Shown here: positions 17,683 to 54,530 of the stretch, piece by piece
Position numbering within the stretch: the first letter of the stretch is position 1
Layout: each line of letters starts with the position of its first letter
NCBI GenBank assembly: GCA_017464285.1
Contig: JAFUDT010000013.1
Coordinates: forward strand, 379,175-443,174
Source: Bacteroidales bacterium
GTDB taxonomy: Bacteria; Bacteroidota; Bacteroidia; Bacteroidales; UBA1402
Reading direction: 5' to 3'
Length of the DNA: 64,000 nucleotides
Position numbers and translations under genes: made by a program
The notes under the pieces: generated by a model
What the model was told of the DNA's origin: nothing
Databases searched by the model: none
What the model saw: only the letters and a program-made list of their open reading frames with translations

Positions 17683-17852
17683 CGCCGGGAGGATTTCTGC
17701 CGCAAAGCTATCATTCTTTGCCGGATTATCATAGTTAATGCTGTCTTTTATCGGCAGTTGTGGTGATTTTCACCACAGAAGAAATCCGTCAAAGAAATAT
17801 TTTTGCCGCAGTCAACTTTCATACATCTCAACCAATTAAACAAACAGTCGTT

Positions 17853-19487: not shown

Positions 19488-19518
19488 ACAACGATATCCG
19501 CAAGACCGGGACCGCTTA

Positions 19519-19547
19519 AGCCGCGACAAATGTCGCGGCTTTTTTTC
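19519..19547 (+). terminator. Rho-independent terminator
   Basis: AGCCGCGACA-AAT-GTCGCGGCT stem-loop followed by TTTTTTT. Confidence 0.65.
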
Positions 19548-19648
19548 TTTGTCCAAGGGTTAAATAATTCAAATAGCAGATTGTATCGCTTGCGATATAA
19601 AATAATTGCCGTACATTTGTGTCGCAAACGATATAAATAAAACAAGCT

Positions 19649-36791: not shown

Positions 36792-38054
36792 ATGGAGAGG
36801 TATAGTTCATATAAAGATAGTGGCATCTCGTGGATTGGTAAAATACCAGAGCATTGGGAGGTATGCAGAATGAAACGTGTTTTTTCGGAAGCAAAAGAAA
36901 AAACCACAACAGAAAGTGAAACACTTTTAAGTTTATCTCAATATACAGGAATCACGTTGAAAGATGATGCGAAAAAAGTTGGTATGTTTGAAGCCGAATC
37001 AACTATTGGGTATAATGTTGTTCATCCAGGTCAGTTTGTAATGAATATTATGTTGGCTTGGAATGGCAGCTATGCTGTATCTGATTATGAGGGTATTATT
37101 TCCCCATCTTATTGTGTCTTTAATTTCAATGAAGATTGCGAAAAGAAATACTTCCACTATCTTTTAAGGCTGCCAGCTTATGCGGGAGCTTTCAAAACTA
37201 TGTCAAAAGGCATAATTGAAAGCAGGCTTCGACTTTACCCAGTCTACTTTCTTGCTTTCAAAACCATAATTCCACCTCTCAACGAGCAACAATCCATTGT
37301 TGCCTACATCGAAGAAAAAACTTCCAAGATAGATGCTTATGTAGTAGACAAGGAGAAAGAGTTACGGCTGCTTAACGAGTTAAAAGAAACCGAAATTGCA
37401 AACGTCGTCACGCAAGGGCTTAACCATAATGTGAAGATGAAAGACTCCGGCATCCCTTGGATTGGGATGATACCTGAGCATTGGGAAATGGTTAAACTGA
37501 AAGTGTATTGTAAAGAGAATAAGGAAAAGAATAGGAATAATCAAGAGTCCACAGTTTTATCTTTAAGTTACGGTAATGTAATAGTTAAACAAGACTTGAA
37601 TGCAGGGCTTTTGCCAGAAAACTATGACTCCTATCAAATTGTCAACCCTGGGTATATAATACTTCGGCTCACTGATTTGCAAAACGATCACAAAAGTCTT
37701 AGGACTGGGTTAGTGAAAAATAGAGGAATAATAACCAATGCGTATGTAGGATTGATAGTAGAGAAAATAAATCCTGCTTATACAAGATTCCTTCTCCATT
37801 CTTATGACTTGAAAAAATTGTTTTACAGTATGGGCGGAGGATTACGTCAATCCATGAGTTACAAGGATGTAGCTAATCTTATGATTTGCGTTCCTCCTCT
37901 TAGCGAACAGCGTGCCATTGTTGAACATATCGAAAACAAGTGCAACAAAGTAAATTCTCTCATTTCCGAATTGGAAGCTGAAATAGAATATCTCAAAGAG
38001 TATAAACAACGTTTGATCGCTGACTGCGTGACAGGGCAAATCAACGTACAATAA
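36792..38054 (+). CDS. hsdS: Type I restriction-modification system specificity subunit
   Basis: 420 aa with two half-repeats (SGISWIGKIPEHWEVCRMKRVF / SGIPWIGMIPEHWEMVKLKVYC; ...PPLNEQQSIVAYIE / ...PPLSEQRAIVEHIE), as expected for two TRDs plus conserved spacers. Confidence 0.92.
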   Translation: MERYSSYKDSGISWIGKIPEHWEVCRMKRVFSEAKEKTTTESETLLSLSQYTGITLKDDAKKVGMFEAESTIGYNVVHPGQFVMNIMLAWNGSYAVSDYEGIISPSYCVFNFNEDCEKKYFHYLLRLPAYAGAFKTMSKGIIESRLRLYPVYFLAFKTIIPPLNEQQSIVAYIEEKTSKIDAYVVDKEKELRLLNELKETEIANVVTQGLNHNVKMKDSGIPWIGMIPEHWEMVKLKVYCKENKEKNRNNQESTVLSLSYGNVIVKQDLNAGLLPENYDSYQIVNPGYIILRLTDLQNDHKSLRTGLVKNRGIITNAYVGLIVEKINPAYTRFLLHSYDLKKLFYSMGGGLRQSMSYKDVANLMICVPPLSEQRAIVEHIENKCNKVNSLISELEAEIEYLKEYKQRLIADCVTGQINVQ

Positions 38055-38529: not shown

Positions 38530-41493
38530 ATGCCTACAGATACCAGCGAAAAGAATCTTGAAACTATCCTTGTCAGTTATTTGTGCAACCAACACAAATA
38601 CGAGCAGGGCGTAAGTGAGAACTATAATAAAGACTACGCGCTCGACACTGAGCGTGTGAAGCGTTTCCTTCTCTCCACACAAAAGCTAAAGGTGGAGAAC
38701 ACCGCTTGTTTTGCAAGCGAGGTGTCTGAGCGCAAATTTTTCACTGAGCTAAATAAGCAACTGGCAACCAACGGTATAACACATATACTACGTAAAGGGT
38801 TCCGCTACATATCAGAGATATTCGATATGTATTATCCGCTTCCATCTGAGCTGAATCCTACTGCTAAGGAGCTGTATGGCAAAAATATATTCTGCGTCAC
38901 CCGGCAGCTATTCTACAGCAAAGAAAATAGCAACAGCATTGATGTGATGATTTCGCTAAATGGCTTGCCCGTCATGACATTGGAACTGAAAAACCACTAT
39001 ACCAATCAGACGATTGAGAATGCTGTTACCCAGTACCAAAACGACCGCGACCCGAAAGACCCCTTGCTGGCTCCCAAAAGGTGCGCCGTACATTTTGCCG
39101 TTGATGATGACGACATCAAAATGTGTACTTGGCTTTCAGGCAAATCATCGTGGTTCCTACCATTCAACAAAGGTGTAAATGGAGGAGCCGGAAATCCAAT
39201 CAATCCCAATGGGATGAGAACTGCCTATCTTTGGGAAGAAATCCTAAAGAAAGAATCTCTCTCTGACATTCTTGAAAACTACGCACAGGTAGTTGTCAAG
39301 AAAGTACGGGAGCGTGATAAGAACACGGGCAAATATAAGGAAGTTACAAAGACTTCTGTCGTATGGCCCCGCTATCACCAGTTAGATGCAGTTCGTAGTT
39401 TGCTGAAGGCAACGCGAGAAGGAGGCATCGGCCAGCGGTTCTTAATTCAACACTCAGCTGGCAGTGGTAAGTCTAATTCAATCACTTGGCTAGCCTATCA
39501 GCTTGTAGGGCTGCTGGATGGAACACAACCGCTGCTTGACAGCGTTATCGTAGTAACTGACCGTGTGAACCTTGACAATCAAATCAGGGACAACATTGCT
39601 GCATTTAAACGTCTGCAAAACCTTGTTGCTTGGGCGGACAGCGCAGACAGAAAAGATAGCAATACTTCATTGAAGAGCCTGCTGGAATCGGGGAAGAAAA
39701 TCATCATTACAATCGTACATAAATTCCCATATATTCTGGATGCAATCGGAAATGAACTAAAGAACAAACGCTTCGGCATTATCATAGATGAAGCGCATAG
39801 CAGCCAAAATGGTTCCTTGTCTGCTAAGATGAATATAGCCCTAAGTGGCAATGCTGGAGGCGACGAGATGGACTTGGAGGACCGGCTGAATCAAATTCTC
39901 GAGGGACGGAAGATGGTGAAGAATGCTAATTACTATGCATTTACTGCTACACCTAAAAATAAAACGCTGCAAATGTTCGGTCAGCCGTTTGATGCTCCAG
40001 AGGGTGAAATAGGTCACCGCCCATTCCATGAATACACCATGAAGCAAGCTATTGAAGAGGGCTTTATAATGGACGTATTGGAGAATTATACCACCTACAA
40101 TAGTTATTACAAGATAGTGAAAGCTATTGAGGAAGACCCGGAATTTGAAAAGAAACAGGCACAAAAGAAACTCCGTGCTTTTGTGGAAAGTCAGCCCGAG
40201 ACAATTCAGCAGAAAGCTTCTGTCATTGTTGAGCATTTCCATACTCAGGTTATTGGTAAAGGCAAGGTTGGAGGACAAGCTCGCGCTATGGTGGTGACAA
40301 GCAGCATCCTCCGCGCCATCGAGTTTTATTATGAGATAAAACGTCAACTGGAAGAACGCAAAAGTCCTTATAAGGCTATCGTCGCCTTCTCGGGTACTAA
40401 AGAGTATGGTGGGAAGCAGGTGTCTGAATCTGATGTAAACGGTTTCCCCTCTAAGGATATTGAGGATAATATGGAAATTGACCCATACCGCATTCTCGTT
40501 GTGGCCGATAAGTTCCAGACGGGTTATGACCAACCACTTCTTCATACTATGTACGTGGATAAGGTGCTTTCTGATGTCAAGGCTGTTCAGACGCTTTCGC
40601 GTCTTAATCGTTGCCATCCTAAGAAACGCGATACTTTTGTCCTGGACTTTGCAAATGATGCAGATGACATACAGAAAGCATTTCAGCGTTATTATAAGAC
40701 AACAATTCTTTCTAAGGAAACTGACCCGAATAAACTCAATGACCTTATTACGGAAATTGAACAGGCTAACATCTACACCGAAGACGATGTGCGTAATCTC
40801 AATGAAAAGTATTGGAGCGGCGCAGAGCGCAATGAGTTGGATCCAATAATCAATACTTCCGTTGACCGCTTCAAGACTTTGGATGAAAACGCTCAGATAC
40901 GCTGTAAGAGTAGCATCAAGTCTTTCCTGCGCATCTATCCGTTTATCGCTGCTGTTATGCCGTTCAAGAGTCAGGAGTGGGAAATGCTAAATACCTTCTT
41001 CATGTTACTTGTTCACAAGTTGCCTAAACTGAAAGGTGAAGATTTCACAGAAGGCTTGCTGGACGCAATAGACTTTGACCAATATCGGCTTGTTAAGGGT
41101 GAGGAACTGAAGATTGAATTAGAAAACAGAGATGAATCCATTGAGCCTATCCCTGTAGGACAACCTAAAGGAAAAGCTGAGCCGGAGATACAGAAGCTCA
41201 GTGACATCCTCGATGAGTTCAACGGCATCAATTGGCTGAACAAGGACAAAGCTAAACAGCAGTTAGAGGAACTGCCGACACGCCTTCAAGCGGATGAAGC
41301 ATTTGTCAATGCGGTGCGTAACAGCAACCGCCAGACGGCTATGCAACAATTCAGCCAATCTATGATGGCGATAGCTATTCAAATGCTGAATGAAAATACA
41401 GAGTTTACACGCAATTACCTTGACAATCCTGATTTTCAGAATTTCATTAACCAGCGCGTCTTCCAGAGCGCATATAATAGTGTAAGGAGATAA
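38530..41493 (+). CDS. hsdR: Type I restriction endonuclease subunit R (SF2 helicase/translocase)
   Basis: 987 aa; motif I HSAGSGKSNS, motif II IIIDEAHSSQ, motif III FTATP, motif VI QTLSRLNR; HsdR_N-type N-terminus. Confidence 0.94.
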   Translation: MPTDTSEKNLETILVSYLCNQHKYEQGVSENYNKDYALDTERVKRFLLSTQKLKVENTACFASEVSERKFFTELNKQLATNGITHILRKGFRYISEIFDMYYPLPSELNPTAKELYGKNIFCVTRQLFYSKENSNSIDVMISLNGLPVMTLELKNHYTNQTIENAVTQYQNDRDPKDPLLAPKRCAVHFAVDDDDIKMCTWLSGKSSWFLPFNKGVNGGAGNPINPNGMRTAYLWEEILKKESLSDILENYAQVVVKKVRERDKNTGKYKEVTKTSVVWPRYHQLDAVRSLLKATREGGIGQRFLIQHSAGSGKSNSITWLAYQLVGLLDGTQPLLDSVIVVTDRVNLDNQIRDNIAAFKRLQNLVAWADSADRKDSNTSLKSLLESGKKIIITIVHKFPYILDAIGNELKNKRFGIIIDEAHSSQNGSLSAKMNIALSGNAGGDEMDLEDRLNQILEGRKMVKNANYYAFTATPKNKTLQMFGQPFDAPEGEIGHRPFHEYTMKQAIEEGFIMDVLENYTTYNSYYKIVKAIEEDPEFEKKQAQKKLRAFVESQPETIQQKASVIVEHFHTQVIGKGKVGGQARAMVVTSSILRAIEFYYEIKRQLEERKSPYKAIVAFSGTKEYGGKQVSESDVNGFPSKDIEDNMEIDPYRILVVADKFQTGYDQPLLHTMYVDKVLSDVKAVQTLSRLNRCHPKKRDTFVLDFANDADDIQKAFQRYYKTTILSKETDPNKLNDLITEIEQANIYTEDDVRNLNEKYWSGAERNELDPIINTSVDRFKTLDENAQIRCKSSIKSFLRIYPFIAAVMPFKSQEWEMLNTFFMLLVHKLPKLKGEDFTEGLLDAIDFDQYRLVKGEELKIELENRDESIEPIPVGQPKGKAEPEIQKLSDILDEFNGINWLNKDKAKQQLEELPTRLQADEAFVNAVRNSNRQTAMQQFSQSMMAIAIQMLNENTEFTRNYLDNPDFQNFINQRVFQSAYNSVRR

Positions 41494-41494: not shown

Positions 41495-43339
41495 ATGATA
41501 ACATCAAATAACGAATCTATATCTGACATCCTGAAGTCTATCGATGAGGGGAAAACGCAACTTCCCGACTTCCAGCGTGGCTGGGTGTGGGAAGATGGGC
41601 GTATTCGTGCGCTCATTGCAAGTATCAGTAATGGCTATCCTATCGGTGCTGCCATGTTCCTTCAGACTGGTGGTGAGGATATTCATTTCAAATACCGCCT
41701 CTTTGAGGGTGTGGATAAATCAAAAGAAAACGTGGAGCCTGAGCGTCTTGTCTTAGACGGACAGCAGCGCAATACTTCCATCTACCGCTCAATGTACTCC
41801 AAGAAGCCTGTTGAAACGGTGGATAGTAAGAAAAAGCCTATCAAGCGTTTCTATTATCTCAATATTCCGCTTTGTCTTGACACACTGATCGACCGCATAG
41901 ATGCGGTGGACTCTGTGCCGGAAGACAAAATCGTTCGAGAAAACATCGGCCGTGACATCAAACTCGATCTCTCGACACGCGAGAAGGAGTTTGAGGCACA
42001 TCGTTTTCCTTTGAACATCGTATTTGATTCACAGGAGATGATGAGATGGCAGCGGCAGTACACGCGTTATCACAATTCTGATGAGGTGGATGAAAACTGG
42101 GATAAATTCTACGACAATGTAATTGTCCCTATGGCCACTTATCAAATACCCGTTATTCAGGTTGGCAACGACGTTCCAAAAGAGGCCGTGTGCCAGGTAT
42201 TTGAGAATGTGAACCAAGGTGGGGTATCGCTGACTGTATTTGAACTTGTGACGGCTACTTTTGCTGCTGATAATTTTGAGCTTCGCAAAGATTGGGAACA
42301 GATATGGAAGGACTTACAACGACATCGCCAACTTTATCACAAAAAGTATCAGTCCTTCACTGGTACTGATTTCCTCACTGCGCTAACTTTGCTGGCTAGT
42401 TATGACAAGTTCAATTCTTCCAACGACAACAAGCCGAAGGCTGTATCGTGTAAGAAGAAGGATGTACTCCGTCTTACCTTCACCGACTATCAAACATATA
42501 GGGACAGGCTTTTATCTGGTTTGAATGAAGCGGTGAAGTTCTTGGAAGAGCAACGGGTATTTACCGCTATCGACATGCCTTATACAAGTCAGCTGATACC
42601 TCTTTCGGTTGCATTTGCCATCGACAAAAATCTTTGGTTTAACGCGGCCAACAGCCGGAAATTGGAACAGTGGTATTGGTGTGGCGTATTTGGTGAATTG
42701 TATGGCGGTGCCAATGAAACCCGCTATGTTACGGACATCACCGGCTTGATGGAATGGGCAAAGGATGATAATGCCGCGCCTGACACCGTGCGTCGTTCTA
42801 ACTTCCACGCTTCCCGTTTGGGTCAGTTATACACACGTAATAGTGCTGCATACAAGGGTATCATGGCACTTATCATGAAAGCGCAGGCCCGCGATTTCAT
42901 CAAAGGGTCGCAGATGGACTTCGCTTCATATGTTGGTGAAGCAACCGACATTCACCACATATTCCCTCAGCATTATTGCGAAGGACAGCACATTGATCGT
43001 GCTTTATGGAATTCTGTCATCAATAAGACACCCATCTATGCCAGGACGAACCGCATTATCGGTGGCAACGCTCCCAGTAAATACCTTTCAAGCATTGAGC
43101 GAAATCACGGTGTAGAGCCTGAAAAGCTTGATGAATATCTTGCTTCTCATATGATTGATGTGGAAGCCATTCGTACCGATGACTTCGATACCTATTTTGA
43201 CAAGCGTAAAAATGCACTTCTTGACCTCGTCGAACAGGCTACAGGCAAACCAGTAGCCGGACGCGACGAACAAGAAGCAGAAGAGCCTTCTTCTTATGAT
43301 TTGGCAGAAATGAATGAAATCGAGTGGGACGTGGAATAA
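41495..43339 (+). CDS. DUF262 (ParB-like NTPase) + C-terminal His-Me/DUF1524-like nuclease protein, GmrSD/SspE/BrxU-type
   Basis: 614 aa; LPDFQRGWVW and LDGQQR DUF262 signatures; C-terminal DIHHIFPQHY...NSVINKTP...RTN; starts 1 nt after the hsdR stop. Confidence 0.85.
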   Translation: MITSNNESISDILKSIDEGKTQLPDFQRGWVWEDGRIRALIASISNGYPIGAAMFLQTGGEDIHFKYRLFEGVDKSKENVEPERLVLDGQQRNTSIYRSMYSKKPVETVDSKKKPIKRFYYLNIPLCLDTLIDRIDAVDSVPEDKIVRENIGRDIKLDLSTREKEFEAHRFPLNIVFDSQEMMRWQRQYTRYHNSDEVDENWDKFYDNVIVPMATYQIPVIQVGNDVPKEAVCQVFENVNQGGVSLTVFELVTATFAADNFELRKDWEQIWKDLQRHRQLYHKKYQSFTGTDFLTALTLLASYDKFNSSNDNKPKAVSCKKKDVLRLTFTDYQTYRDRLLSGLNEAVKFLEEQRVFTAIDMPYTSQLIPLSVAFAIDKNLWFNAANSRKLEQWYWCGVFGELYGGANETRYVTDITGLMEWAKDDNAAPDTVRRSNFHASRLGQLYTRNSAAYKGIMALIMKAQARDFIKGSQMDFASYVGEATDIHHIFPQHYCEGQHIDRALWNSVINKTPIYARTNRIIGGNAPSKYLSSIERNHGVEPEKLDEYLASHMIDVEAIRTDDFDTYFDKRKNALLDLVEQATGKPVAGRDEQEAEEPSSYDLAEMNEIEWDVE

Positions 43340-43438: not shown

Positions 43439-44560
43439 CTATCTTCGTGTTAGTTGACCGATTAATTTTTCGGCATATTCTTTGCTTAAATGATGATTGA
43501 CTAAAAACTTGAGAATTAGTTTTTGGTCTTCAACCGCTTCGGCGGTCCTGATAAATGTCGGCTGGTTAATGCTGATAAAGGAAGAGAGCCTACCGTCTGT
43601 CATCTTTTGAATAGCTCGTTTGATTTCTCTCATGGACTCGGTGTCTCGAGTAAAGATTGTGATATCCTTTTTCTCTGTGTTAACGTAATCTGACTGTTTC
43701 AAGAAGAACGGCGCAAAATATTGACGGTCGTTCTCGCCAAGAGAGTGACCAAAGATCACAACTTCATCGGCCTCTCTGAGCTTTGTGACGATATCTGATG
43801 GGTTAAACGAATCGTCCATCGCCTTCTGAAGAAAGTCATAGCTCTCAGCTATTGTTTGGTCATCTCGTGTTCCAATAATTATTTTGCCGTCCTCACAAGA
43901 ACCATGTACGTATTTGATGTGAATGTCGTCAAGATTGTGATTGGGCCACCAGGGATGAGTGTAATTGAAGGTGAAGGCGTCAACAAAGGCGCCAGCTTCT
44001 TGTGTCTTTATAATCGCATGGAGTATCTGATAAGATACTTTTTTCTCGGAAATTGGCATTTTGATGGATCCCAAATAACTACAGAGTTTATCTTTGATAA
44101 GGTCTAGCGCTTTCTTGTCGCGCCAGATGGGAGATTGAAGTGCGTCGTCTTTATAGTGCTCATGGACCTCTCTATATATTCCATAATCGGTTGCGGAAAG
44201 GACCCCTTTATTGATGAGAGATTCTATCAGATTCCATTGGTTGTCATACCAACCATTTATGTATCCATAAGATGTGAATTTTTCAAGAAAGTGTCTCTCT
44301 TCTTCTGTGATAATATCCTTGGCTTTCGTTGGGTCCTTAACGATCTCATAATAATAATCTAGTAGTCCGTTTTCCAGGTCATACCATCTTACACTCTCAA
44401 GGTTGTTTGGCCAATGCTGATTCAAGTAATGGATGAGTGGAGCTGGATAATCCTTAGGGCAATAGTCTGACTCCCAAAAGTCTTTGTAGGACGTTTTGAA
44501 GCCAAGGTCAAGGTCGAATCCGTTACCTAGGATAAGCACTATTTTGCGCGGCTCAGTCAT
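43439..44560 (-). CDS. AbiH-family abortive-infection protein
   Basis: 373 aa; N-terminal IVLILGNGFDLDLGFKTSYKDFW matches the AbiH hallmark (GNGFDL..G.KTSY.DF). Confidence 0.7.
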   Translation of the reverse strand: MTEPRKIVLILGNGFDLDLGFKTSYKDFWESDYCPKDYPAPLIHYLNQHWPNNLESVRWYDLENGLLDYYYEIVKDPTKAKDIITEEERHFLEKFTSYGYINGWYDNQWNLIESLINKGVLSATDYGIYREVHEHYKDDALQSPIWRDKKALDLIKDKLCSYLGSIKMPISEKKVSYQILHAIIKTQEAGAFVDAFTFNYTHPWWPNHNLDDIHIKYVHGSCEDGKIIIGTRDDQTIAESYDFLQKAMDDSFNPSDIVTKLREADEVVIFGHSLGENDRQYFAPFFLKQSDYVNTEKKDITIFTRDTESMREIKRAIQKMTDGRLSSFISINQPTFIRTAEAVEDQKLILKFLVNHHLSKEYAEKLIGQLTRR

Positions 44561-44735
44561 GCATCTAATTATTTTCGATTACGAATCAACACTCTATTCT
44601 GATTAATGAGGTCCTTGGCCTCAAATGTACTAACATTGATTTATCCCTGCAAAGAAATAACGCGACTTTCTGCTGGTTTGTTTGCGAAAGTTCTTCCTGG
44701 CTATTATTTTTGTCCGTTGACAAAGTCTAAGAACG

Positions 44736-45173
44736 ATGAAGAAGTTATTCTACCTATTGCTGCTTCCTTTGCTATGTGTTTCATGTGAGGAACTTGAAGA
44801 GCCCGAACCAGATCCTGCCGATGCGTTTGTGGGGCGGTATGAATACTTTACTACGATGTTCGCCACATATGGAAGCGCATCCCAAACGGGAATGTTAGAA
44901 GGCGAATTCTCTATTGTTAAGTTATCCAGAGATCGTGTGAGAATGACTGGCGATTGGTCTTCGATTGGAGAAGTGTATGGTAATACTGTTAGCTTTTCCG
45001 ATGATTATCAGTCGGATGCCAGTGGCTATTTGACTTTTAAATTTGGAGCGGCTTCTTTTAGCGGCGGTCTGCTTTACTTTAACTATACAGCTTCGGGACG
45101 CTTAAAATACACCGATGGCGTGGCATACCCATTCACTTGCAATGGCAGCGTAACTGCACATAGAATTGATTGA
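44736..45173 (+). CDS. Small lipoprotein of unknown function
   Basis: 145 aa; lipobox LLLPLLCVSCEE; beta-rich; stop lies 6 nt before the next ORF. Confidence 0.6.
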   Translation: MKKLFYLLLLPLLCVSCEELEEPEPDPADAFVGRYEYFTTMFATYGSASQTGMLEGEFSIVKLSRDRVRMTGDWSSIGEVYGNTVSFSDDYQSDASGYLTFKFGAASFSGGLLYFNYTASGRLKYTDGVAYPFTCNGSVTAHRID

Positions 45174-45179
45174 ACTGTT

Positions 45180-48100
45180 ATGAGCACTAGTGAAACAGGA
45201 TTGTATAATAAAATAATGACATCAACTGTATCGACATACTACACGAATAAGATCCTGAGTATCATTGATGAGTACTCAAGTAGAAATGATTTTACGATAT
45301 TTGTTTTTCTTGGTGTTACAGAATGTATAGATACTCGGGCGATTATAGGAAACATTCTTGACCAAAAAACTTTTTATCTGGATGGAGGTGAACAGATATT
45401 TGATAAAGCCTGGAGGAGAGATGCGGTTAAACAAATCATAAACAGCGATAAACCTTTTGTCATACTTTCATACCAACAGTTTTGCTACTTGGAACAAAAC
45501 TTGGGTAAAGACTTTTTGGAAAACGTGGTCATTATTCAGGATAACCTCCGATCATTGTATCAAATCTCACCGCATCTTTATATTCGTCCCAATATACACG
45601 AAAAAGAGGCTGATCTTGAAGAGAGACCTGATAAACTCCCTGTATATCAAGCAGAGCAGTTCGTGTTTGACAACAAGTATTTCTATAGCGTCGATATACC
45701 AAGTGATCCTAATTACATAATAGTCCCCCTTTTTACTGAAAGAAAGCAGATTAACGTGGATCTGAAACACCCCTCTAATCGGGTTAAATTAATTGATCTC
45801 AAGGGTGATAGTTATGCACTAGATATTATTCTGAATGAATGTGTCAGAGGAGATTTCCTATATGAACAGATTGTAATCAAAACATATAAAAAAAATCCTC
45901 TCACAGGTCTATATAGACAACGCATCGAATGTATTAATGCTTTCCTAAATAGACTTGGGCATTCAATATCTGAATACCAAGAAACGCTTGATAAAGAGGA
46001 ATGTCACATTAGTAAAGAAACTATCTCATTGTTGCACGAATATTGGGGCAATGACGCTTCATTCAGAGATATTGAAGTTTATTCTAATCCTGATGAGGGC
46101 AAGACTCTTGTGAAAATATCTCAGGGGCAGATAGTTCAGACAATCATTAAAGAGTATAAGAATAGTCGTTCTGGAACAGAAGTTCGAGATTTATTACTTA
46201 CTGCACCCACGGGAGCTGGTAAATCACTGATTTTTCAGTTGCCAGCATTTCACATCGCAAAAAAAGGAGATGTCACTATTATCGTTTCTCCTCTTATAGC
46301 TTTGATGAAGGATCAAGTAGATGCAATAAAGGCACGTGGATTTGCCCGTGTCGAATATATAAATAGTCTATTAAACTATATAGATAGAGATCGCATTATA
46401 AAAGAATGTCAGGCGGGTCATGTCGATATTCTGTACATGTCACCGGAATTGCTTCTGTCATACCACATTTCTCATTTTATAGGTGATCGTTCAATAGGGT
46501 TAATGGTTATTGATGAGGCTCATCTGATTACAACATGGGGACGCGATTTTAGGGTAGATTATTGGTATATGGGCGAGCATCTGAGAAAGATAAGAAAAAA
46601 CTTACCCTATTCATTTCCCATAATTGCAGTTACTGCTACTGCAATATATGGCGGTGATAATGATATGGTTTTTGACACGATAGATAGTCTTCACATGCAA
46701 AGGCCTCACCTGTTCATAGGAAAAATTAGGCGAGAAGACATTCTATTTGCTATTAACAACTATGATTCACCAAAGTCTCAGTATTACTCGTTCAAATTAG
46801 CTCAGACAGCTGCTTTTATTTCAAAAATGGTTGAATTGGGGGCTAAAACAATTGTTTATACCCCATACAAAAGACACATTGGAGATATATTGTCAAAAAT
46901 TTGTACCCCTGAAGAAAAAGAGAAAATAGCCATTTACAAAAGTGACCTGGACTCGTATATCAAGGAAGAGTCAATGAATTTGTATAAATCGGGAGAGAAA
47001 ACGATTATGCTTTGTACCAAAGCATTTGGGATGGGTGTTGACATTCCTGATATCCAAGTTGTCTATCATCATGCGCCCTCAGGTCTTTTACCCGACTACA
47101 TCCAGGAAATAGGAAGGGTGGCCAGAGATCCCAAGGTGATAGGTATCGCAGCAATTGAGTACTCAGAAAAAGATCAAATATATAGCAAAGCGCTCCATGG
47201 CTTATCTTCTATCAAACCTTTTCAAATTCAGTATATTTTGAAAAAGCTGTATTCTCTCTATTTGAAGAATGAGAAAAAAAGGAATATGGTTGTCTCAACA
47301 GACGATTTTCAATATATTTTCCCAAAATCCAACGCGGAAGAGGTGAGCCAAAAAGTTCAAACCGGCTTGATGATGATTGAAAAAGACTACTTGGCGAAGT
47401 ATCGTTTCAATGTCGTCATTGCAAGACCAAAGCAATTATTTGTCAAAGCATATGCGAGAACTAATGAATTTGGCTACAACTTTTTGATGATGAATTACAA
47501 AAACTGTATTGATAGTGTTGTGAAAGAAGAAAATGGGCATTACTGGATGTTATTAGACTTGGATAAGGTGTGGAAGAAGAACTTCGTTGATATTACATTT
47601 CCACTACTAAAAAAACGTTTTTATGACCAAGAACTTTTTTCTGATAAAAATCTTCTGTTGGTGCCAGAAGTAAGATTTGATTTTGAATTTACTTCTGATT
47701 TCACAAAGAGCTATGCATATATCAGTGATATATTAGAGGCTACTTCAGGATACTTTAGCATTTCTCTCACCTCTTTCAAAGAAGTCGATCTTGAAAATCA
47801 ACTAGTTAAATCTATACCTGATGGTCGAAAAAGAGAGCAGTATGTAAGATTCATTTTGACCACATACTCTGATATTGGTAATAAAGAAACCGATTCATTT
47901 CTTCAGGCTAGAAGGAATGGACATGGTCAGTTCTTCTTTGTGAAGAATAACAATTATGAAAAGAAGTTCTCGAATCTCAAGAGACTCTTTTATGAGTTGT
48001 TTGGTAATGGGCAACAAAAGGTTACACGTTACCGACAATACGGGGGGACGAGGGCCTTGGATTTGTATAGACTTGGAGGACTGTTTGATTTGTTTGACCT

Positions 48101-48908
48101 TGGTACTTTCGGATGCAGAGGAGGAGAGAATCCTATGATATTTGTCCGTATAAATGATCCCGAAAAAGTAAGACGAGACTCCGAAAATATGAAATACGAG
48201 AATTTAATCCTCAAAAGGACTTTAAACAAGAACAAGATCAGTTCGGAGCTCTTTGATTATTTTTTTATGAATGACTTTGATGATAAAAAACGTTGGTCAT
48301 TTATCGAGGATTTTTTTCTGGGAATGGATAACGACGATCTGTTTACTAGATATCCTGCAACATCACTGTGTCACACGAACATAATTCAATACATTGAAGA
48401 TCATATACAATCAACAGAAACCCTGTCTGTTGCGCCAAAGAAAACGACGTCAGAGGGACAATCAGTATCCTTTGCTCCTATCGCTGGCACTTTTTATTCA
48501 GATGATAGACAACTCACAATAAACGGAGTGACCAAAACTATAAGTAGGTGGATAATAGACAGCCCGGTAGAACTAAATAAAACGATAACCAACTATTCGA
48601 TAAAGATTGGTAAAAACAGTCGATCAGTACTAATTTCCAAGTTGATGAATAATCACAAGGAATACTATCGAGAATTCATTGGATTAAATGCTCTAATAGA
48701 TTTTCCGGGGTACGAAGGGCCTGTGAAGGCAAGCATTCCATTTCAATATGAGCCGTTACAGTTTTATCGCTGGTGGCAGAAGAATGAAGATGTAGTTTAC
48801 CTAAGTAAGTCAAATCAAATAAAGTTATTCCTCACAGTCGTAGACCAAGGAGAAACATTATTAAAAAGGCATAGTCAAGTCCTTTTGATGAGTAAAAAGA
48901 GATTATAA
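45180..48908 (+). CDS. 1242-aa protein with a central RecQ-like SF2 helicase core and unassigned N- and C-terminal regions
   Basis: Motifs TAPTGAGKS (I, ~46206), IVSPLIALMKDQ (Ia), VIDEAHLITTWGRDFR (II), IAVTATA (III), LCTKAFGMGVDIPD (V), QEIGRVARD (VI). The ~290 aa upstream and ~580 aa downstream have no motif I recognise. Confidence 0.8.
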   Translation: MSTSETGLYNKIMTSTVSTYYTNKILSIIDEYSSRNDFTIFVFLGVTECIDTRAIIGNILDQKTFYLDGGEQIFDKAWRRDAVKQIINSDKPFVILSYQQFCYLEQNLGKDFLENVVIIQDNLRSLYQISPHLYIRPNIHEKEADLEERPDKLPVYQAEQFVFDNKYFYSVDIPSDPNYIIVPLFTERKQINVDLKHPSNRVKLIDLKGDSYALDIILNECVRGDFLYEQIVIKTYKKNPLTGLYRQRIECINAFLNRLGHSISEYQETLDKEECHISKETISLLHEYWGNDASFRDIEVYSNPDEGKTLVKISQGQIVQTIIKEYKNSRSGTEVRDLLLTAPTGAGKSLIFQLPAFHIAKKGDVTIIVSPLIALMKDQVDAIKARGFARVEYINSLLNYIDRDRIIKECQAGHVDILYMSPELLLSYHISHFIGDRSIGLMVIDEAHLITTWGRDFRVDYWYMGEHLRKIRKNLPYSFPIIAVTATAIYGGDNDMVFDTIDSLHMQRPHLFIGKIRREDILFAINNYDSPKSQYYSFKLAQTAAFISKMVELGAKTIVYTPYKRHIGDILSKICTPEEKEKIAIYKSDLDSYIKEESMNLYKSGEKTIMLCTKAFGMGVDIPDIQVVYHHAPSGLLPDYIQEIGRVARDPKVIGIAAIEYSEKDQIYSKALHGLSSIKPFQIQYILKKLYSLYLKNEKKRNMVVSTDDFQYIFPKSNAEEVSQKVQTGLMMIEKDYLAKYRFNVVIARPKQLFVKAYARTNEFGYNFLMMNYKNCIDSVVKEENGHYWMLLDLDKVWKKNFVDITFPLLKKRFYDQELFSDKNLLLVPEVRFDFEFTSDFTKSYAYISDILEATSGYFSISLTSFKEVDLENQLVKSIPDGRKREQYVRFILTTYSDIGNKETDSFLQARRNGHGQFFFVKNNNYEKKFSNLKRLFYELFGNGQQKVTRYRQYGGTRALDLYRLGGLFDLFDLGTFGCRGGENPMIFVRINDPEKVRRDSENMKYENLILKRTLNKNKISSELFDYFFMNDFDDKKRWSFIEDFFLGMDNDDLFTRYPATSLCHTNIIQYIEDHIQSTETLSVAPKKTTSEGQSVSFAPIAGTFYSDDRQLTINGVTKTISRWIIDSPVELNKTITNYSIKIGKNSRSVLISKLMNNHKEYYREFIGLNALIDFPGYEGPVKASIPFQYEPLQFYRWWQKNEDVVYLSKSNQIKLFLTVVDQGETLLKRHSQVLLMSKKRL

Positions 48909-49357: not shown

Positions 49358-49503
49358 GCTTCGCCGCGGTATAGATTGGGGGTTTGGTGGCGAGGCACTG
49401 TTTTGTCCTGTGCCGAGCGGCAAACCACAAATCTCAGCGGCAAGCCCGAACCAATCGGAAGGCCCAATCCCGGCGTTGCGTTGCAGTTGTTGCAGTTGTT
49501 TCC
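49358..49503 (+). repeat. Hairpin-repeat family, full copy A (hairpin 49358-49445 + tail)
   Basis: Contains TGGTGGCGAGGCACTGTTTTGTCCTGTGCCGAGCG and tail GTTGCGTTGCAGTTGTTGCAGTTG; abuts the umuC stop codon. Confidence 0.9.
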
Positions 49504-49508: not shown

Positions 49509-50804
49509 CTATCGCAATCTGATGATGTCGGACCAGCGAGTGGTGGGATTCTTGCTGCGGAAATCGTGCTTGATGGCATTGGCAAAGACTTCGGCCTTGC
49601 CCCGCCCGTCTTTTAAGGTATATTGCTGAGCCCCGACGACCACCGTCTCCGAACCATGCAGGCGGTTGATACGGTCGACCACCTCGTCGAGCCGCCGCAT
49701 CTTCTGAATCTGCTCGGCACTCAAGTCGAACAAATCTGTCTGCACAGGACTGTCGGGATCGATGTTCATGACAATGACACCGGCCTTCTTGTAGCGATAG
49801 CCCTCGACAAAAATACGGTCGAGCACTTCGAGCGCCGCCCGCACCACCAGCGTGGTCGAAGATGTTGGAGTGAGAAGGCTCGTCTCCTGGAAATTCCAGT
49901 ATTGCGCCAAATCTTCGCGAAAAGCATTGGTATGGACAAATACCCCCACCGTCGAGGCCACACTCTGCTGCATGCGCAGCTTCTCGGCACAACGAGCCGC
50001 ATAGTTGGCCACATGAGTGCGAAGGGCCTCCTTGTCGGCTATCATGCCCTGAAACGAACGGCTGGTGCAGATGCTTTTCTTGCGGGCCAGCTCCTCGTTG
50101 GGCACCACATCCTCGCCGTTGAGCTCCTGCCAAGTACGCAGCATGTTGATGTTGTTAAAGGTAAGCTGCACCCAGTCACGGTGGTGGCTGGCCAGATCGA
50201 GCGCCGAGTGGCAGCCCAGCGCCTTGAGCTTGGCCGCATAGCGCCGACCGATGCCCCAGACATCTTCGATGGGACACCACGCAAGGGCCCTCTGGCGCTT
50301 GTAGTCGTTGTCGATGATGCAGCAATGCTTGTAGGCGGCATATTTCTTGGCCAGCTTGGAGGCGATCTTGGCCAGCGTCTTGTTGGGCGCCAGGCCGATG
50401 CTGATGGGCAGGCCCACCTCGCGCCTGACCCGCCGGTGGAGATGCTCGCCCCACTGCTGGAGCCTGTCGGGAGCTATGCCATCGAGATACATGAAGCACT
50501 CGTCGATCGAGTAGCGGAAATAGGCGGGCGCCTCCTGGCGGATGATACTCACCACACGCCCCGTGAGCTCGCCGTAGAGCTCGTAGTTGGAAGAGAAGAC
50601 GGCGATCTTCTGCCCGGGAAACTGCTGCGCCAGCCGGAAATAGGGCGTGCCCTCCTGGATGCCCATCTTCTTGGCCTCGTTGCTGCGGGCCACCACGCAG
50701 CCGTCGTTGTTGGACAGCACGACTATGGGTCTTCCCTCCAGATCGGGGCGGAACACCTTCTCTCACGAGCAGTAGCAATTGTCAAGGTCGGCGATGCCGT
50801 ACAT
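49509..50804 (-). pseudogene. umuC: Y-family DNA polymerase V subunit UmuC, interrupted by an in-frame TGA at codon 14
   Basis: Minus strand reads ATG TAC GGC ATC GCC GAC CTT GAC AAT TGC TAC TGC TCG TGA GAG AAG GTG TTC CGC = [21 protein letters not shown]..., then 415 uninterrupted codons ([14 protein letters not shown]...[11 protein letters not shown]). TGA at 50765-50763. Confidence 0.8.
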
Positions 50805-50806
50805 GG

Positions 50807-51244
50807 TCAGAACTTCTCGAAGGTGCGGATGAGGTGGATGACGGTGCCCCAGATCTGGAAATTCTCGGGGTCCTTGATCTTGAAGACCGGGTAGTCGGGA
50901 TTGGCCGGGCGTAGCTCGATGTAGCCTTCCTTGCGATGGGTCAGGTCGAGATACTTCATGGTGAAGCCGCCGTCCCACCAGGCCACTACGATCGAGCCGT
51001 CGTGGGGCTCCACGGCTCTGTCGATGATGACGCGGTCGCCGTCGAACAGGCCGGCATCTTTCATGGAGTCGCCTTCGACATAGCCGTAGAACGAGGCTTC
51101 GGGATGCCGGATAAAGTCGCGGTTGAAGTCGAGCGTGTCGTGTATGTAGTCGTCGGCCGGGCTGGGAAATCCGGCGGTCACCCCGGCATTGACCAACTCA
51201 AGCCGGGTGTCGAACTCTCCTCTCACTATCTTGATATTGCTCAT
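50807..51244 (-). CDS. umuD: SOS-response translesion subunit UmuD (LexA-like S24 peptidase)
   Basis: 145 aa; cleavage-site-like AG, Ser GDSM, Lys ...FTMKYL...; its stop lies 2 nt before the umuC ATG. Confidence 0.88.
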   Translation of the reverse strand: MSNIKIVRGEFDTRLELVNAGVTAGFPSPADDYIHDTLDFNRDFIRHPEASFYGYVEGDSMKDAGLFDGDRVIIDRAVEPHDGSIVVAWWDGGFTMKYLDLTHRKEGYIELRPANPDYPVFKIKDPENFQIWGTVIHLIRTFEKF

Positions 51245-51316
51245 AACTCGAATCTGCTGATACTAATCTTCCTTAAGAACGAAGGTAAGCGAATTTTATG
51301 AAACGGCAAAAAAATC

Positions 51317-51462
51317 GGCAGTCTTCCGGCTGCGGTACAAATCGGGCGCTCTGGTGGCGAGGCACTGTTTTGTCCTGTGCCGGGCGCCAGAGCCCCGATT
51401 TCAGCAGCCGGGATGGTTCCCGGCATGCCGGTGTTGCGTTGCAGTTGTTGCAGTTGGTTTGG
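51317..51462 (+). repeat. Hairpin-repeat family, full copy B (hairpin 51326-51411 + tail)
   Basis: CCGGCTGCGGTACAAATCGGGCGCTCTGGTGGCGAGGCAC-TGTTTTGTCCT-GTGCCGGGCGCCAGAGCCCCGATTTCAGCAGCCGG, then ...GTTGCGTTGCAGTTGTTGCAGTTGG. Confidence 0.92.
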
Positions 51463-51524
51463 AGTAGGATTTTGTGTTGCTAAGTCGAAGGGGTTTTCGT
51501 AGTTTTGCAGAAAGCTCATGAAAA

Positions 51525-52514
51525 ATGGAAGAGAACAAGATTATCATATACCAGACAGAGGATGGACAGACGCAGATTGATGTTCGTCTGGAGAACGAGA
51601 CAGTGTGGCTGACACAGGCTCAGATGGCAGAACTGTTCGAAAAGACGCCTCAGAATATTACCATGCATATTGGTAATGCGTATAAGGAGGGCGAGCTGGA
51701 AAGAGACTCAACATGTAAGGAATACTTACAAGTTCAACAAGAGGGAAAGAGGAAAGTTTCTCGTATCGTGAAATACTACGACCTCGATGTCATCATCTCT
51801 GTGGGTTACCGCGTCAAAAGTAAGCGCGGTACCGCTTTCCGCATTTGGGCTCGTAAGGTCTTGAAAGACTATCTCGTCAAAGGTTATGCCGTCAACGAAC
51901 GCCTTCGCAAGGAACAGATTGGAGAGTTGCGCCAATTGGTTGGTATGATTGGTAGAACTATTCAGAATCAGCCGCTAGCATCGAATGATGAAACGAATGC
52001 TCTCTTCGAGGTGGTGACGAATTACACCTATGCGCTCGATACGCTCGACAACTATGACTATGAACGGCTGACCATCGATAAGACCACGAAGGAAGAACCT
52101 TTCCATGCCACCTACGAGAATGCAATGGAAGCCATCAATGGCTTGCGTAAAAAGTTTGGTGGTTCGGCTCTGTTTGGCAATGAGAAGGACGAGTCGTTCA
52201 AAAGCAGCATCGGACAGATTTACCAGACTTTTGGGGGTGAGGAGCTTTATCCCAGTGTAGAGGAGAAAGCCGCCATGCTGCTCTATCTTGTCACCAAGAA
52301 CCATTCCTTCAGTGATGGCAACAAGCGCATAGCAGCTACACTTTTCCTGTGGTTCCTCAACAACAACGGCATCCTTTATCGCGAAGATGGCTCCAAGCGT
52401 TTGGCAGACAACACCCTGGTTGCTCTGACGCTGATGATAGCAGAGAGCAGGACGGAGGAGAAGGATGTAATGGTGAAAGTGGTGGTAAACCTGATAAACC
52501 AAAGAAACAACTGA
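51525..52514 (+). CDS. RhuM-family N-terminal domain fused to a Fic/Doc domain
   Basis: 329 aa; N-terminal ...IIIYQTEDGQTQIDVRLENETVWLTQAQMAELF...VISVGYRVKS.RGT.FR.WA is RhuM-like; C-terminal HSFSDGNKRIAA matches the Fic/Doc core HxFx(D/E)GN(G/K)R; a TAGTTTTG -7-like box at 51500-51507. Confidence 0.8.
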   Translation: MEENKIIIYQTEDGQTQIDVRLENETVWLTQAQMAELFEKTPQNITMHIGNAYKEGELERDSTCKEYLQVQQEGKRKVSRIVKYYDLDVIISVGYRVKSKRGTAFRIWARKVLKDYLVKGYAVNERLRKEQIGELRQLVGMIGRTIQNQPLASNDETNALFEVVTNYTYALDTLDNYDYERLTIDKTTKEEPFHATYENAMEAINGLRKKFGGSALFGNEKDESFKSSIGQIYQTFGGEELYPSVEEKAAMLLYLVTKNHSFSDGNKRIAATLFLWFLNNNGILYREDGSKRLADNTLVALTLMIAESRTEEKDVMVKVVVNLINQRNN

Positions 52515-52540
52515 AATAAACGTTTGTGGATTGCCTGGCT

Positions 52541-52600
52541 CCCGGAGCGTTGCGACGGTAGTTGTTGCAGTTGGTTTGGGGATTTCGGCAGCCGCAGTGG
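52541..52600 (+). repeat. Hairpin-repeat family, partial copy C (tail-like segment + 3'-arm end)
   Basis: CCCGGAGCGTTGCGACGGTAGTTGTTGCAGTTGGTTTGG followed by GATTTCGGCAGCCGCAGTG. Confidence 0.75.
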
Positions 52601-52836
52601 TTATCAGTTAACAATTGCTCAGTGCATACAGAGGGACGATGTCCACGTGTCTTTGCTCGAAATTGTCCTTGGGGTCGTAGTGGTCAAACTGACCGATTGC
52701 CTTGCGGGTGCGAAGTTATAAATAGTTTCCAAAAGTCGGGGCAAAAAACATGGGAAATTATCCAAAATACAGCCCAAAACCAAAAGTCGGGGCAAAAAAG
52801 GAGTCCGTTTATCTAAAAGGAAGGGCGAAAACAGAC

Positions 52837-52887
52837 CTTTTTGTCCTGTGCCGAGTGCCGGAGCTCCGATTTCGGCAGCCGCAGTGC
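52837..52887 (+). repeat. Hairpin-repeat family, partial copy D (loop + 3' arm)
   Basis: CTTTTTGTCCTGTGCCGAGTGCCGGAGCTCCGATTTCGGCAGCCGCAGTGC. Confidence 0.8.
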
Positions 52888-52983
52888 TTCTTCGATGCCG
52901 TTCGACGTTTTTCGGGGTAAGAAGCCAAAATGTTTGTTATACTAAACATTTATGCTTATATTTGCGCCCAATAAGATACAATT

Positions 52984-53283
52984 ATGGGTAAGAATACATT
53001 TGGTAAAACGATGCCAAGGGCACTGAGCCAGAACCTGAAGATTATGGGCGAGCAAATCATGTTGGCCCGCAAGCGCAGACATTTGTCTATGCAGGACATT
53101 GCAGACAGGGCTACTGTGACACGCCTCACTGTCTCGAAGGTGGAACATGGCGACCCGACGGTTTCCATGGGTATCTATGCGCGTGTACTCTTCGCACTTA
53201 ATTTGGAAAAGGATATTACCCTGCTGGCGGCCGACGACGCTCTTGGCAGACAGCTTCAGGATGCAGAATTACTAAGACGATGA
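52984..53283 (+). CDS. XRE-family HTH protein (HipB-like antitoxin)
   Basis: 99 aa; HTH ...LARKRRHLSMQDIADRATVTRLTVSKVEHG...; its stop overlaps the hipA ATG (ATGA). Confidence 0.85.
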   Translation: MGKNTFGKTMPRALSQNLKIMGEQIMLARKRRHLSMQDIADRATVTRLTVSKVEHGDPTVSMGIYARVLFALNLEKDITLLAADDALGRQLQDAELLRR

Positions 53284-54530
53284 AGAGAATTATAGTTTAC
53301 GCAGATTTTGACTTCCTGACCTCCCCCGAAGAGATAGGATCATTGGACTACGAACATGTTCGTGGCAAAGACCATTTTGCCTTTGAGTATTCGCGCCAGT
53401 GGCTGAAACAACATGGCGGCATTCTGCTGAGCGGTGACCTGCTGAATGTCCCTTCATTGCAGCATCCTCGTAGCAATGATAATGTGTTCGGCTTTGTCAA
53501 GGATTCCTTTCCCGATCGCTGGGGACAGCTGTTACTCGACCGCAGAGAGCGACTGGCTGCTCAACAGGAAGGCAGGCCGAAACGCATGCTTACCAATTAC
53601 GACTACCTCGTAGGGATTGAAGACTTCACCCGTATGGGGGGCATACGTTACAAAGAGGAAAAAGGTAGTGACTTTATTAATGCGAATGCAAAATACCATG
53701 TTCCTCCGATTGAGAGTCTTCGTGCCCTATGCGATGCATGCCATGAAATAGAGTTGGCTGAGGAGCGCAATGAATTGCCGGAACAACGCTGGCTCGATCA
53801 GTTGATCGACCCGGGAACCTCGCTCGGTGGCGCCCGTCCTAAGGCCAATGTGGTTGATGCGGACGGTAAACTGTATGTGGCCAAGTTCCCATCTAAGAAG
53901 GATCTGGAGAATACAGAGTTTATAGAACACTTCTCACATCAACTGGCGGCCAAAGCTGGTATCAACGTGGCAAAGACACGCACCATCAAGATTTCAAAAG
54001 ACCGTGATCTGCTTCTTTCTGAACGTTTCGATAGAACAGCGGAAGGCCGTCGCATTCATTTTGCTTCTGCTATGTCGTTGCTTGGTTTGGACGACGGTGC
54101 TGGCGGCAGCACAGGTAACGGCTATCTTGACATTGTTGATTTCATCCTTCGTGGGTGTACCGATGTGCGCCGGAATCTCAAGGAGCTATATCGCAGAGTG
54201 GCATTCAACATCATGTTTGGCAACACAGACGACCACTTCCGTAATCACGGTTTTCTGCTTACCCCGAAAGGCTGGACGCTCTCTCCTGCATACGATATCA
54301 ATCCGGGAGCAGAGTCACATCAGAGCTTGCTCATAGACTCATACACAGAAGAATCGAACATCAATGTCTTGCTCTCTGCAAGCGAGAGCTACATGCTTGA
54401 CAGGCAAGAGGCAAAAGATATTATTGAGGAGGTTCGTGCCACGATCAAAGACTGGCGTAAAATCGCAACTGAACTGCAAATACCCCTAAAGTTGTTGGAG
54501 TCATATTCTATTCGTTGGGATGAACTATAA
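53280..54530 (+). CDS. hipA: HipA-family serine/threonine kinase toxin
   Basis: 416 aa; HipA_N coupling region, GTSLGGARPKANV, catalytic NTDDHFRNHGFLL. Confidence 0.9.
   Translation: MKRIIVYADFDFLTSPEEIGSLDYEHVRGKDHFAFEYSRQWLKQHGGILLSGDLLNVPSLQHPRSNDNVFGFVKDSFPDRWGQLLLDRRERLAAQQEGRPKRMLTNYDYLVGIEDFTRMGGIRYKEEKGSDFINANAKYHVPPIESLRALCDACHEIELAEERNELPEQRWLDQLIDPGTSLGGARPKANVVDADGKLYVAKFPSKKDLENTEFIEHFSHQLAAKAGINVAKTRTIKISKDRDLLLSERFDRTAEGRRIHFASAMSLLGLDDGAGGSTGNGYLDIVDFILRGCTDVRRNLKELYRRVAFNIMFGNTDDHFRNHGFLLTPKGWTLSPAYDINPGAESHQSLLIDSYTEESNINVLLSASESYMLDRQEAKDIIEEVRATIKDWRKIATELQIPLKLLESYSIRWDEL

Follow-up and report, generated by a model that had tools for sequence, protein, structure and literature searches.

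Many of the immune systems of bacteria are driven by large helicases, among them Cas3, DISARM, Druantia, ARMADA, Hachiman and Dpd, and large superfamily 2 (SF2) helicases in defence islands are already well known. Enzymes of the RecQ type translocate 3'-5' on single-stranded DNA (ssDNA) in an ATP-dependent manner, with coupling through an aromatic-rich loop. We describe here a 1242-residue (aa) RecQ-like helicase encoded in a 64,000-nucleotide stretch (the window) of a Bacteroidales bacterium contig (JAFUDT010000013.1, positions 379,175 to 443,174), which had been proposed, together with a small lipoprotein gene immediately upstream, to constitute a one- or two-gene anti-phage or anti-plasmid system. 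The plausibility of a defence role and the island context of that proposal stand, but its two-gene form does not, and if there is a system here it is one of a single gene. We think it reasonably probable that the helicase is a stand-alone, horizontally transferred, single-gene defence factor of RecQ lineage that acts in DNA-targeting immunity or restriction, although any specific mechanism merits much less confidence than this. The gene and the regions of its product are as follows.

45180..48908, plus strand: RecQ-like helicase gene, 1242 aa (open reading frame [ORF] call)
45180..46019, plus strand: N-terminal region, aa 1-280, predicted by AlphaFold as two alpha/beta subdomains of unmatched fold
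46020..47249, plus strand: pre-helicase linker (LLxxYWG..FR) and RecQ-type SF2 core (Pfam, TIGR01389, PDB profile search)
47250..48344, plus strand: C-terminal module C1, aa ~691-1055, common to the whole superfamily (C3a193 profile, 597 clusters)
48345..48908, plus strand: C-terminal module C2, aa ~1056-1242, mostly helical, an optional add-on present in the ~1220-1250-aa architecture only

The core of this superfamily has been listed once, in 2018, under a guessed label. C3a193, from Shah et al. 2018 (PMC6546367), is a three-member cluster with Thebr_0949 as its representative. Its members are situated next to cas cassettes of Type III-B/D, and the cluster is itself no more than a computational listing of these three genes. 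The corresponding PADLOC profile, PDLC01089 ('C3a193, poss. alt. Cas3'), is the best profile match of the window helicase (E=4.3e-159), with profile positions 222-982 of 983 aligned to aa 281-1050. The two belong to the same superfamily and have the linker, the RecQ-like core and C1 in common, but the first 221 positions of the profile cannot be aligned with the N-terminal 280 aa of the window protein, the short-form relatives (~980-1100 aa) lack the terminal ~185-aa C2 module, and the clade of the window helicase has no CRISPR association. In the literature on RecQ-like defence, CRISPR-linked RecQ, DpdF/RecQ and ARMADA variants, we found the family described only in the C3a193 table row.

A PADLOC search matched the helicase to no validated named system, in keeping with the original prediction that it fits none that can be named. 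PsyrT/RqlH, of the PsyrTA/RqlHI toxin-antitoxin defence systems, is likewise a RecQ-like helicase in a defence or toxin context, and the PADLOC PsyrT profile matches the window helicase core (E=4e-52), although over profile positions 38-373 of 689 only. The window protein is about twice the size of PsyrT/RqlH and has different flanks, and neither an adjacent PsyrA/RqlI-type antitoxin nor a conserved partner is present in 56 loci. DpdF, of the Dpd 7-deazaguanine DNA-modification/restriction cluster, also has a RecQ-related core, and the PADLOC DpdF profiles reach 7e-68, but the match is restricted to the core, the NCBIfam DpdF model scores 119.8 bits against a cut-off of 550, and Dpd companion families are absent from the top 25 neighbour families listed, an absence that is not absolute. 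DrmA (DISARM), ArmC (ARMADA) and DruE (Druantia) are also large SF2 helicases, and by analogy a common logic is likely, namely a motor acting on ssDNA-containing invader DNA. The window helicase differs from these in being of RecQ rather than YprA lineage, in having no PLD or Vsr nuclease domain, and in usually standing alone. Pfam finds in it no DUF1998, the mark of the DISARM/ARMADA YprA type, and the DrmA profiles match only aa ~594-654 at motif VI (E~2e-4).

The relationship to RecQ is close within the core and absent outside it. All six helicase motifs originally reported are present in the translation, with Walker A as TAPTGAGKS, the DEAH box as VIDEAH, the aromatic-rich loop as TTWGRDFR, motif III as VTATA and motif VI as QEIGRVARD; the SF2 core, Walker A, DEAH, WG(R/H)DFR loop and motif VI are common to canonical RecQ and to eukaryotic RECQ1, RECQ5, WRN and BLM. 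Only DEAD (aa 334-488, 3e-23) and Helicase_C (aa 551-649, 7e-19) are recognised by Pfam in the 1242-aa protein. A family profile matched RecQ, RECQ5, RECQ1, WRN and BLM among PDB sequences over aa ~316-690 only (E=1e-34 to 3e-47 for RecQ, RECQ5, WRN and BLM), and when bacterial RecQ (TIGR01389) is included the alignable part amounts to ~330 residues (E=1e-34 to 1e-62). This core is the best-conserved stretch of the family, with column identities of 0.79-0.89.

The scores nevertheless lie far below those of true RecQ. The NCBIfam recQ model (TIGR01389) aligns with aa 335-691, ending near model position 358 of 591, and yields 211 bits, a third of its equivalog cut-off of 640.2; PRK11057 scores 162 against a cut-off of 1015, and the recQ_fam subfamily model 170.8 against 219.8. 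No Cys is present between residues 612 and 776, no invariant Cys is found there across 30 homologues, and Pfam detects neither an RQC nor an HRDC domain in the protein, so that the Zn-binding/RQC module and HRDC end are missing, as first noted. Unlike RecQ, the protein thus has no Cys4 Zn-binding subdomain and no HRDC, and its core is preceded by 280 additional aa and followed by ~550 aa, both of unmatched fold, although a possible winged-helix after the core, suggested by weak Foldseek matches, would be a further point of likeness. The distribution is also unlike that of a core-genome gene. A family-specific C-terminal profile, searched against 185,579 genomes that each represent a different species, gave only 89 confirmed matches, scattered over Bacteroidota, Chlorobiota and a few Bacillota, with one in Limnohabitans, where near-universal spread would be expected of canonical RecQ; the gene is rare, its neighbourhoods differ, and its GC content is ~20 points below that of the flanking genome. 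Because of the sub-cut-off scores, the absent Zn finger and HRDC, the foreign GC, the rare and scattered distribution and the varying neighbourhoods, we judge from sequence that the protein is an accessory, island-borne and horizontally acquired RecQ-like helicase and not the syntenic housekeeping RecQ that the original prediction had set as its counter-case. An identical protein is on deposit under the title 'MAG: ATP-dependent DNA helicase RecQ [Bacteroidales bacterium]' (MAG, metagenome-assembled genome).

The flanks of the core are as much a part of the family as the core itself. Full-length homologues of 1217-1289 aa make up more than 119 clusters, with 43-49% identity over 96-99% of the length, and in an alignment of 30 sequences the mean column identity is 61%. 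Because invariant residues occur in all regions of this alignment, the flanks are evidently real, selected domains. When the C-terminal profile was run exhaustively as a hidden Markov model against 1.84 billion representative proteins, it returned 597 clusters, 477 of them at E<=1e-10, and these fall into two main architectures of ~1215-1250 aa and ~1030-1100 aa. The long form matches the full C-terminal profile (positions 1-546), whereas the short form ends near position 360. A short-form member (P0162) is 39% identical to the window helicase over aa 280-1055, but an hhalign comparison of its N-terminus with the window N-terminal profile gives a probability of only 6%. Since the short form aligns at aa 280-1055 only and its N-terminus is not credibly alignable, the superfamily, as read from these alignments, has a conserved engine (aa 280-1055), a variable N-terminal region (aa 1-280) and an optional C2 (aa 1056-1242). 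Atypically long members show no recognisable fused effector domain, and only DEAD and Helicase_C are identified in them.

A subclade of the helicases carries an A9-A11 homopolymer at the C1/C2 linker (codon ~1054-1063). The tract is read through in eight genomes (L018, L019, L021, L022, L025, L027, L042 and L062), whereas in four loci from different phyla (L058, L059, L061 and L068) the ORF ends after ~1060 aa, with C2 carried on in a different frame. Such a split could be a homopolymer error of the MAGs, or it could reflect slippage or phase variation that toggles C2; the tract is absent from the window gene.

The structural models agree with the sequence searches in giving the flanks no relatives. 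AlphaFold2 with the family alignment produced confident models for both, with a predicted local distance difference test score (pLDDT) of 86 and a predicted template modelling score (pTM) of 0.80 for the N-terminal 300 aa, and a pLDDT of 81 and pTM of 0.58 for the C-terminal 582 aa. Foldseek comparison of both with 350,542 PDB chains gave no significant match, the best E-values being 0.064 (N-terminal, template modelling [TM] score ~0.2) and 0.081 (C-terminal), with TM scores of ~0.1-0.2 overall, and the N-terminal model had no convincing match in BFVD (TM ~0.2). Pfam scans at permissive E-values, with ten members for each flank, also found nothing, nor did PDB sequence-profile searches of each flank, and across Pfam, NCBIfam, PADLOC and PHROGs the whole protein gave no established family for the flanks, only the uncharacterised C3a193 profile. 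The earlier statement that the flanks match nothing known therefore needs qualifying: no domain or fold can be assigned by AlphaFold, Foldseek, Pfam or PDB searches, but the C3a193 profile covers aa 281-1050.

Within the N-terminal region, the two predicted subdomains are linked by a highly conserved acidic loop (consensus ENIEERPExMPIYMAEQ) modelled at low confidence, and the invariant polar residues are D121, R124, R149, Q160, D210, D215, N219, C221, K234 and K238. C1 opens with a very conserved segment at aa 701-750 (...MMIEKDYLAKxRFNVxIARPK...), followed by alpha/beta repeat units. The C-terminal model has weak local Foldseek matches to ~95-aa winged-helix DNA-binding proteins (probability 0.6-0.85, E>0.3) and to ferredoxin-like/ACT units, and a Zn-less winged-helix may lie directly after the core, at aa 701-750. 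A disordered linker (aa ~1074-1095) precedes the bulk of C2, in which W1198, W1199 and H1231 are invariant.

The genomic neighbourhoods show that the unit is a single gene without a conserved partner, because no neighbour family recurs (none is present in more than five of ~55 loci) and the intergenic gaps are large, typically 100-1000 nt. What does recur, and across phyla, is a tight association with restriction-modification (R-M), abortive infection (Abi), toxin-antitoxin and integrase genes. In the Marinilabilia locus the genes upstream encode McrBC, a type IIG enzyme and proteins of the kinase-FHA and Schlafen/AlbA_2 types, and those downstream ParDE and a Upf1-like helicase, and that of a groundwater bacterium has M78/DUF4411 and AIPR upstream and RhuM downstream. 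At another locus (L047) a Type III res/mod pair directly follows the helicase gene, and in Waltera (Bacillota, L010) the gene is positioned 25 nt from hsdS and 13 nt from hsdR, between the two. Among 239 neighbour proteins from 48 loci, the top Pfam families, from a pooled listing of 25, are ResIII, AAA_21, N6_Mtase, Methylase_S, HsdM_N and Phage_integrase, with GmrSD_N, Eco57I, NERD, Patatin, SocA_Panacea and transposases also represented. In the defence-island enrichment check that had been suggested, homologues of 30 defence or mobile-element reference proteins (reference-source loci excluded) account for 14 of the 239 genes within +-4 positions of the helicase compared to 2 of 214 farther away in the same loci, an odds ratio of 6.6 (Fisher p=0.004) against a limited control. 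The most recurrent nearby gene is of the RhuM family, found near downstream in at least three unrelated loci (window 51525-52514; L086 13974-14963; L062 +1), although in the window it is not adjacent to the helicase.

The nature of the conserved engine suggests several plausible modes of action. The ATPase and helicase motifs are intact and the RecQ aromatic-rich loop is retained, and therefore ATP-driven 3'-5' translocation on ssDNA is predicted. By analogy with other immune helicases, the motor could load onto ssDNA-containing intermediates of the invader, either replication or recombination intermediates or free 3' ends, and could then disrupt or expose them, as has been proposed for DrmAB, DruE and ArmC. 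The Zn-less, winged-helix-like start of C1 might recognise duplex or branched DNA, and the lineage-variable N-terminal domain and C2 could sense the target or hold the enzyme in an autoinhibited state. It might instead be that the invariant Asp/Lys cluster of the N-terminal domain marks an unrecognised catalytic (nuclease-like) activity.

A bolder version of this, which we consider possible but rather unlikely, is that the protein is a new type of immune helicase working as a single protein, with novel folds and novel activities in both its N-terminal region and its C-terminal modules. One form of it has the variable domains sensing a phage cue, with the nuclease-free motor aborting infection by dismantling phage replication or recombination intermediates; in a second form the N-terminal domain would be a new nuclease fold. 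In both, the engine would be interchangeable with the YprA helicases of DISARM/ARMADA-like arrays.

Several observations count against assigning the helicase to stand-alone defence. We found no report of experimental protection by the family in the searchable literature. No nuclease signature was detected in the helicase by Pfam, PADLOC, PDB sequence profiles or Foldseek, and because there is no detectable nuclease or effector domain, a bare helicase offers no evident means of killing or excluding an invader. The enrichment test was based on crude ORF calls, with the far genes of the same loci as sole control, and only 9 of 46 sampled loci score with the 30-protein reference set. Some neighbourhoods hold ordinary metabolic genes, and the integrase, SprT-like and UmuDC neighbours would be compatible with mobile-element maintenance too.

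This last point leads to the strongest of the non-defensive alternatives, in which the helicase is mobile-element cargo that serves the replication, repair, transfer or counter-defence of the element, with the defence genes as co-riders of the same islands. The low GC and patchy distribution are compatible with it, as are the Phage_integrase and transposase families among the top neighbours, the UmuDC genes nearby in the window, the SprT-like gene also present in the Waltera locus, and a further group of loci (P0026) in which two integrases, directly upstream, and an AEP-TOTE helicase precede the helicase gene and SprT-like (ArdC-type) genes follow it. We nonetheless regard it as unlikely. No relaxase, conjugation or replication-initiator family recurs among the neighbours; the gene is found within operons, one of Type I R-M and one DISARM/ARMADA-like, as is typical of defence genes; and a search of 50,697 phage records gave no match to the family and the plasmid search only two distant partial ones. 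A distant short-form relative (1070 aa, annotated as a DEAD/DEAH box helicase) is encoded by the mobilizable Exiguobacterium aurantiacum plasmid pCXA (L097, 984-5162), with an HNH endonuclease gene 133 nt downstream, and some short forms may accordingly have a nuclease encoded separately as their partner.

A third possibility accepts defence but not autonomy, such that the helicase is a subunit of larger helicase/methylase systems, either DISARM/ARMADA-like or accessory to Type I R-M, which needs its neighbours and whose stand-alone copies are orphans. Evidence for this comes from a lineage of Prevotella (L004/L007; Prevotella sp. SIG146, 1-19705), where, on 24 contigs or more, the helicase is inside a tightly packed operon in the order UvrD, DrmD-like SNF2, 1606-aa Eco57I-type methyltransferase, RecQ-like helicase, 244-aa protein, 1516-aa S1+Upf1-like helicase and >1700-aa DarT-domain protein. 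The helicase gene begins 4 nt after that of the methyltransferase, and the SNF2 protein matches PADLOC DrmD at 5e-91, so that the helicase holds a DrmA/ArmC-like position beside a DrmD/ArmA-like SNF2, a giant adenine methyltransferase and a UvrD-like helicase. ARMADA II is composed of ArmD, ArmA, ArmB and ArmC, with a YprA helicase (PMC13463889). The Prevotella operon parallels this cast, except that its helicase is of RecQ and not of YprA lineage, a variant that the ARMADA/YprA survey does not mention. The position between hsdS and hsdR in Waltera also speaks for a subunit role. However, most loci have no common neighbour and large intergenic gaps, an opposite-strand AbiH gene separates the helicase from the R-M genes in the window, and the lack of DUF1998 and the weak DrmA matches at motif VI alone are not those of a DISARM or ARMADA helicase. 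We consider an obligate subunit improbable.

That the helicase cooperates with the exported lipoprotein encoded upstream, for example as an envelope sensor signalling to a cytoplasmic helicase, was the more specific part of the original prediction, and it has fared poorly. The elements concerned are these.

44705..44712, plus strand: Bacteroidetes-type -7 promoter-like motif TAnnTTTG (TATTTTTG), from a motif search only
44736..45173, plus strand: predicted lipoprotein gene, 145 aa, starting MKKLFYLLLLPLLCVSC (ORF call; signal peptide and lipobox LLCVSC, with the break before the Cys)

The two ORFs, the lipobox and the 6-nt gap are present as originally described; the lipoprotein stop codon (TGA, 45171-45173) is followed by ACTGTT and then by the helicase ATG. 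With both genes on the same strand this spacing suggests co-transcription. The candidate promoter motif at 44705, which has TTTG elements ~20-30 nt upstream, could drive the lipoprotein and the helicase as one transcript, although agreement with a consensus does not by itself show function, and the pair is found together in three independent assemblies of one organism. The lipoprotein may thus share a transcript with the helicase at this locus, although a second TAnnTTTG match at 45038, within the lipoprotein gene, is 142 nt ahead of the helicase ATG.

Conservation argues strongly against a functional pair. No lipoprotein gene is immediately upstream of the helicase in any of 56 full-length homologue loci, a tblastn search of 78 helicase-family loci found nothing below E=0.5, and the protein belongs to no Pfam, PADLOC, NCBIfam or PHROG family, with homologues in only 6 clusters among 5.8 billion proteins. 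The homologues in two of these six clusters, at the eight places displayed, all end HsdS-HsdR-McrB-McrC clusters with no RecQ-like helicase nearby. Because the co-occurrence is 0/56, tblastn gives no match and the homologues of the lipoprotein are located elsewhere without the helicase, the pairing is by all indications a local accident of island assembly, unique to the window locus, with the lipoprotein an independent passenger of the island; a two-gene module is very unlikely, and the tight 6-nt spacing of two island genes is not in itself evidence for one. The lipoprotein homologues (L089-L096, Bacteroidales) sometimes have a Sel1-like 146-aa ORF before them and, after them, an ORF of 88-103 aa and a WYL protein. 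Their positions repeatedly put an exported protein at the 3' end of restriction clusters.

The alternative Cas3 or Type III CRISPR accessory role implied by the C3a193 label is extremely improbable. It draws on the strong PDLC01089 match (E=4e-159) and on the location of the three C3a193 members next to Type III-B/D cassettes, but it is a label from three genomes with no experiment behind it. The window and 96 further loci were examined for CRISPR arrays and have none, no cas families are among the top Pfam families of the 239 neighbours, Pfam finds no HD nuclease domain in the helicase, and the Cas3 profiles match marginally, at aa ~594-659 around motif VI only (E~3e-4); membership of Cas3 itself is rejected on the lack of HD domain and arrays and on that marginal match. 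Equally improbable is a divergent housekeeping or DNA-repair RecQ paralogue, since although the core is truly of RecQ type, with the aromatic-rich loop, and umuDC is close by in the window, the scores far under the equivalog cut-offs, the missing Zn finger and HRDC, the patchy and rare occurrence, the foreign GC and the variable genomic location all speak against it.

A usually stand-alone RecQ-lineage engine, as favoured here, would add a distinct branch to the immune helicases. The new elements are the long architecture, defined by the N-terminal region and C2, the ~830 flanking residues that have no structural relative though confidently modelled, and a gene that is stand-alone by nature yet also occurs within R-M and ARMADA-like operons in different phyla, the insertions in Type I R-M and DISARM/ARMADA-like operons spanning four phyla. 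As a one-gene construct it is a tractable means of asking how a nuclease-less helicase restricts invaders, and it is often met with in Bacteroidales of the gut and rumen, whose defence repertoires are an obstacle to phage therapy and to genetic manipulation. It is a good and cheap candidate for anti-phage experiments, if one of many such.

The wider locus has the following arrangement.

34706..36790: hsdM, Type I R-M (Pfam on the identical contig L001 and ORF calls)
36792..38054: hsdS, Type I R-M (Pfam on L001 and ORF calls)
38066-38503: 145-aa ORF between hsdS and hsdR (ORF call)
38530..41493: hsdR, Type I R-M (Pfam on L001 and ORF calls)
41495..43339: GmrSD-type Type IV enzyme, GmrSD_N (Pfam on L001 and ORF calls)
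43439..44560, minus strand: AbiH (Pfam on L001 and ORF calls)
49509..51244, minus strand: umuC/umuD (Pfam; ~55% GC)
51525-52514: RhuM/Fic protein, RhuM fused to Fic (Pfam)
49509..54530: downstream context as a whole, umuC/umuD, RhuM/Fic and HipA-like toxin (Pfam)

The GC scan and Pfam agree with the original description of a ~38% GC island beside Type I R-M, GmrSD-like and AbiH genes, the GC content being 36-39% across 44-49 kb, whereas the window has 55-62% over its first 30 kb. The helicase is not clearly the terminal gene of this island, as had been claimed, since UmuDC, RhuM/Fic, HipA and HigB/HTH genes (the last also by Pfam) come after it. The 145-aa ORF between hsdS and hsdR may be another R-M-embedded accessory gene; it was considered as a paralogue of the lipoprotein, with which it has equal length but no sequence similarity. 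A search for att-type island boundary repeats around the helicase found none, and the sole repeats are those that bracket umuC/umuD, a pair of imperfect direct repeats of ~125 and ~115 bp at 49378-49501 and 51345-51459, with 64 nt at 81% and 35 nt at 91% identity. These suggest that umuDC is a separately inserted or duplicated-flank unit inside the low-GC island.

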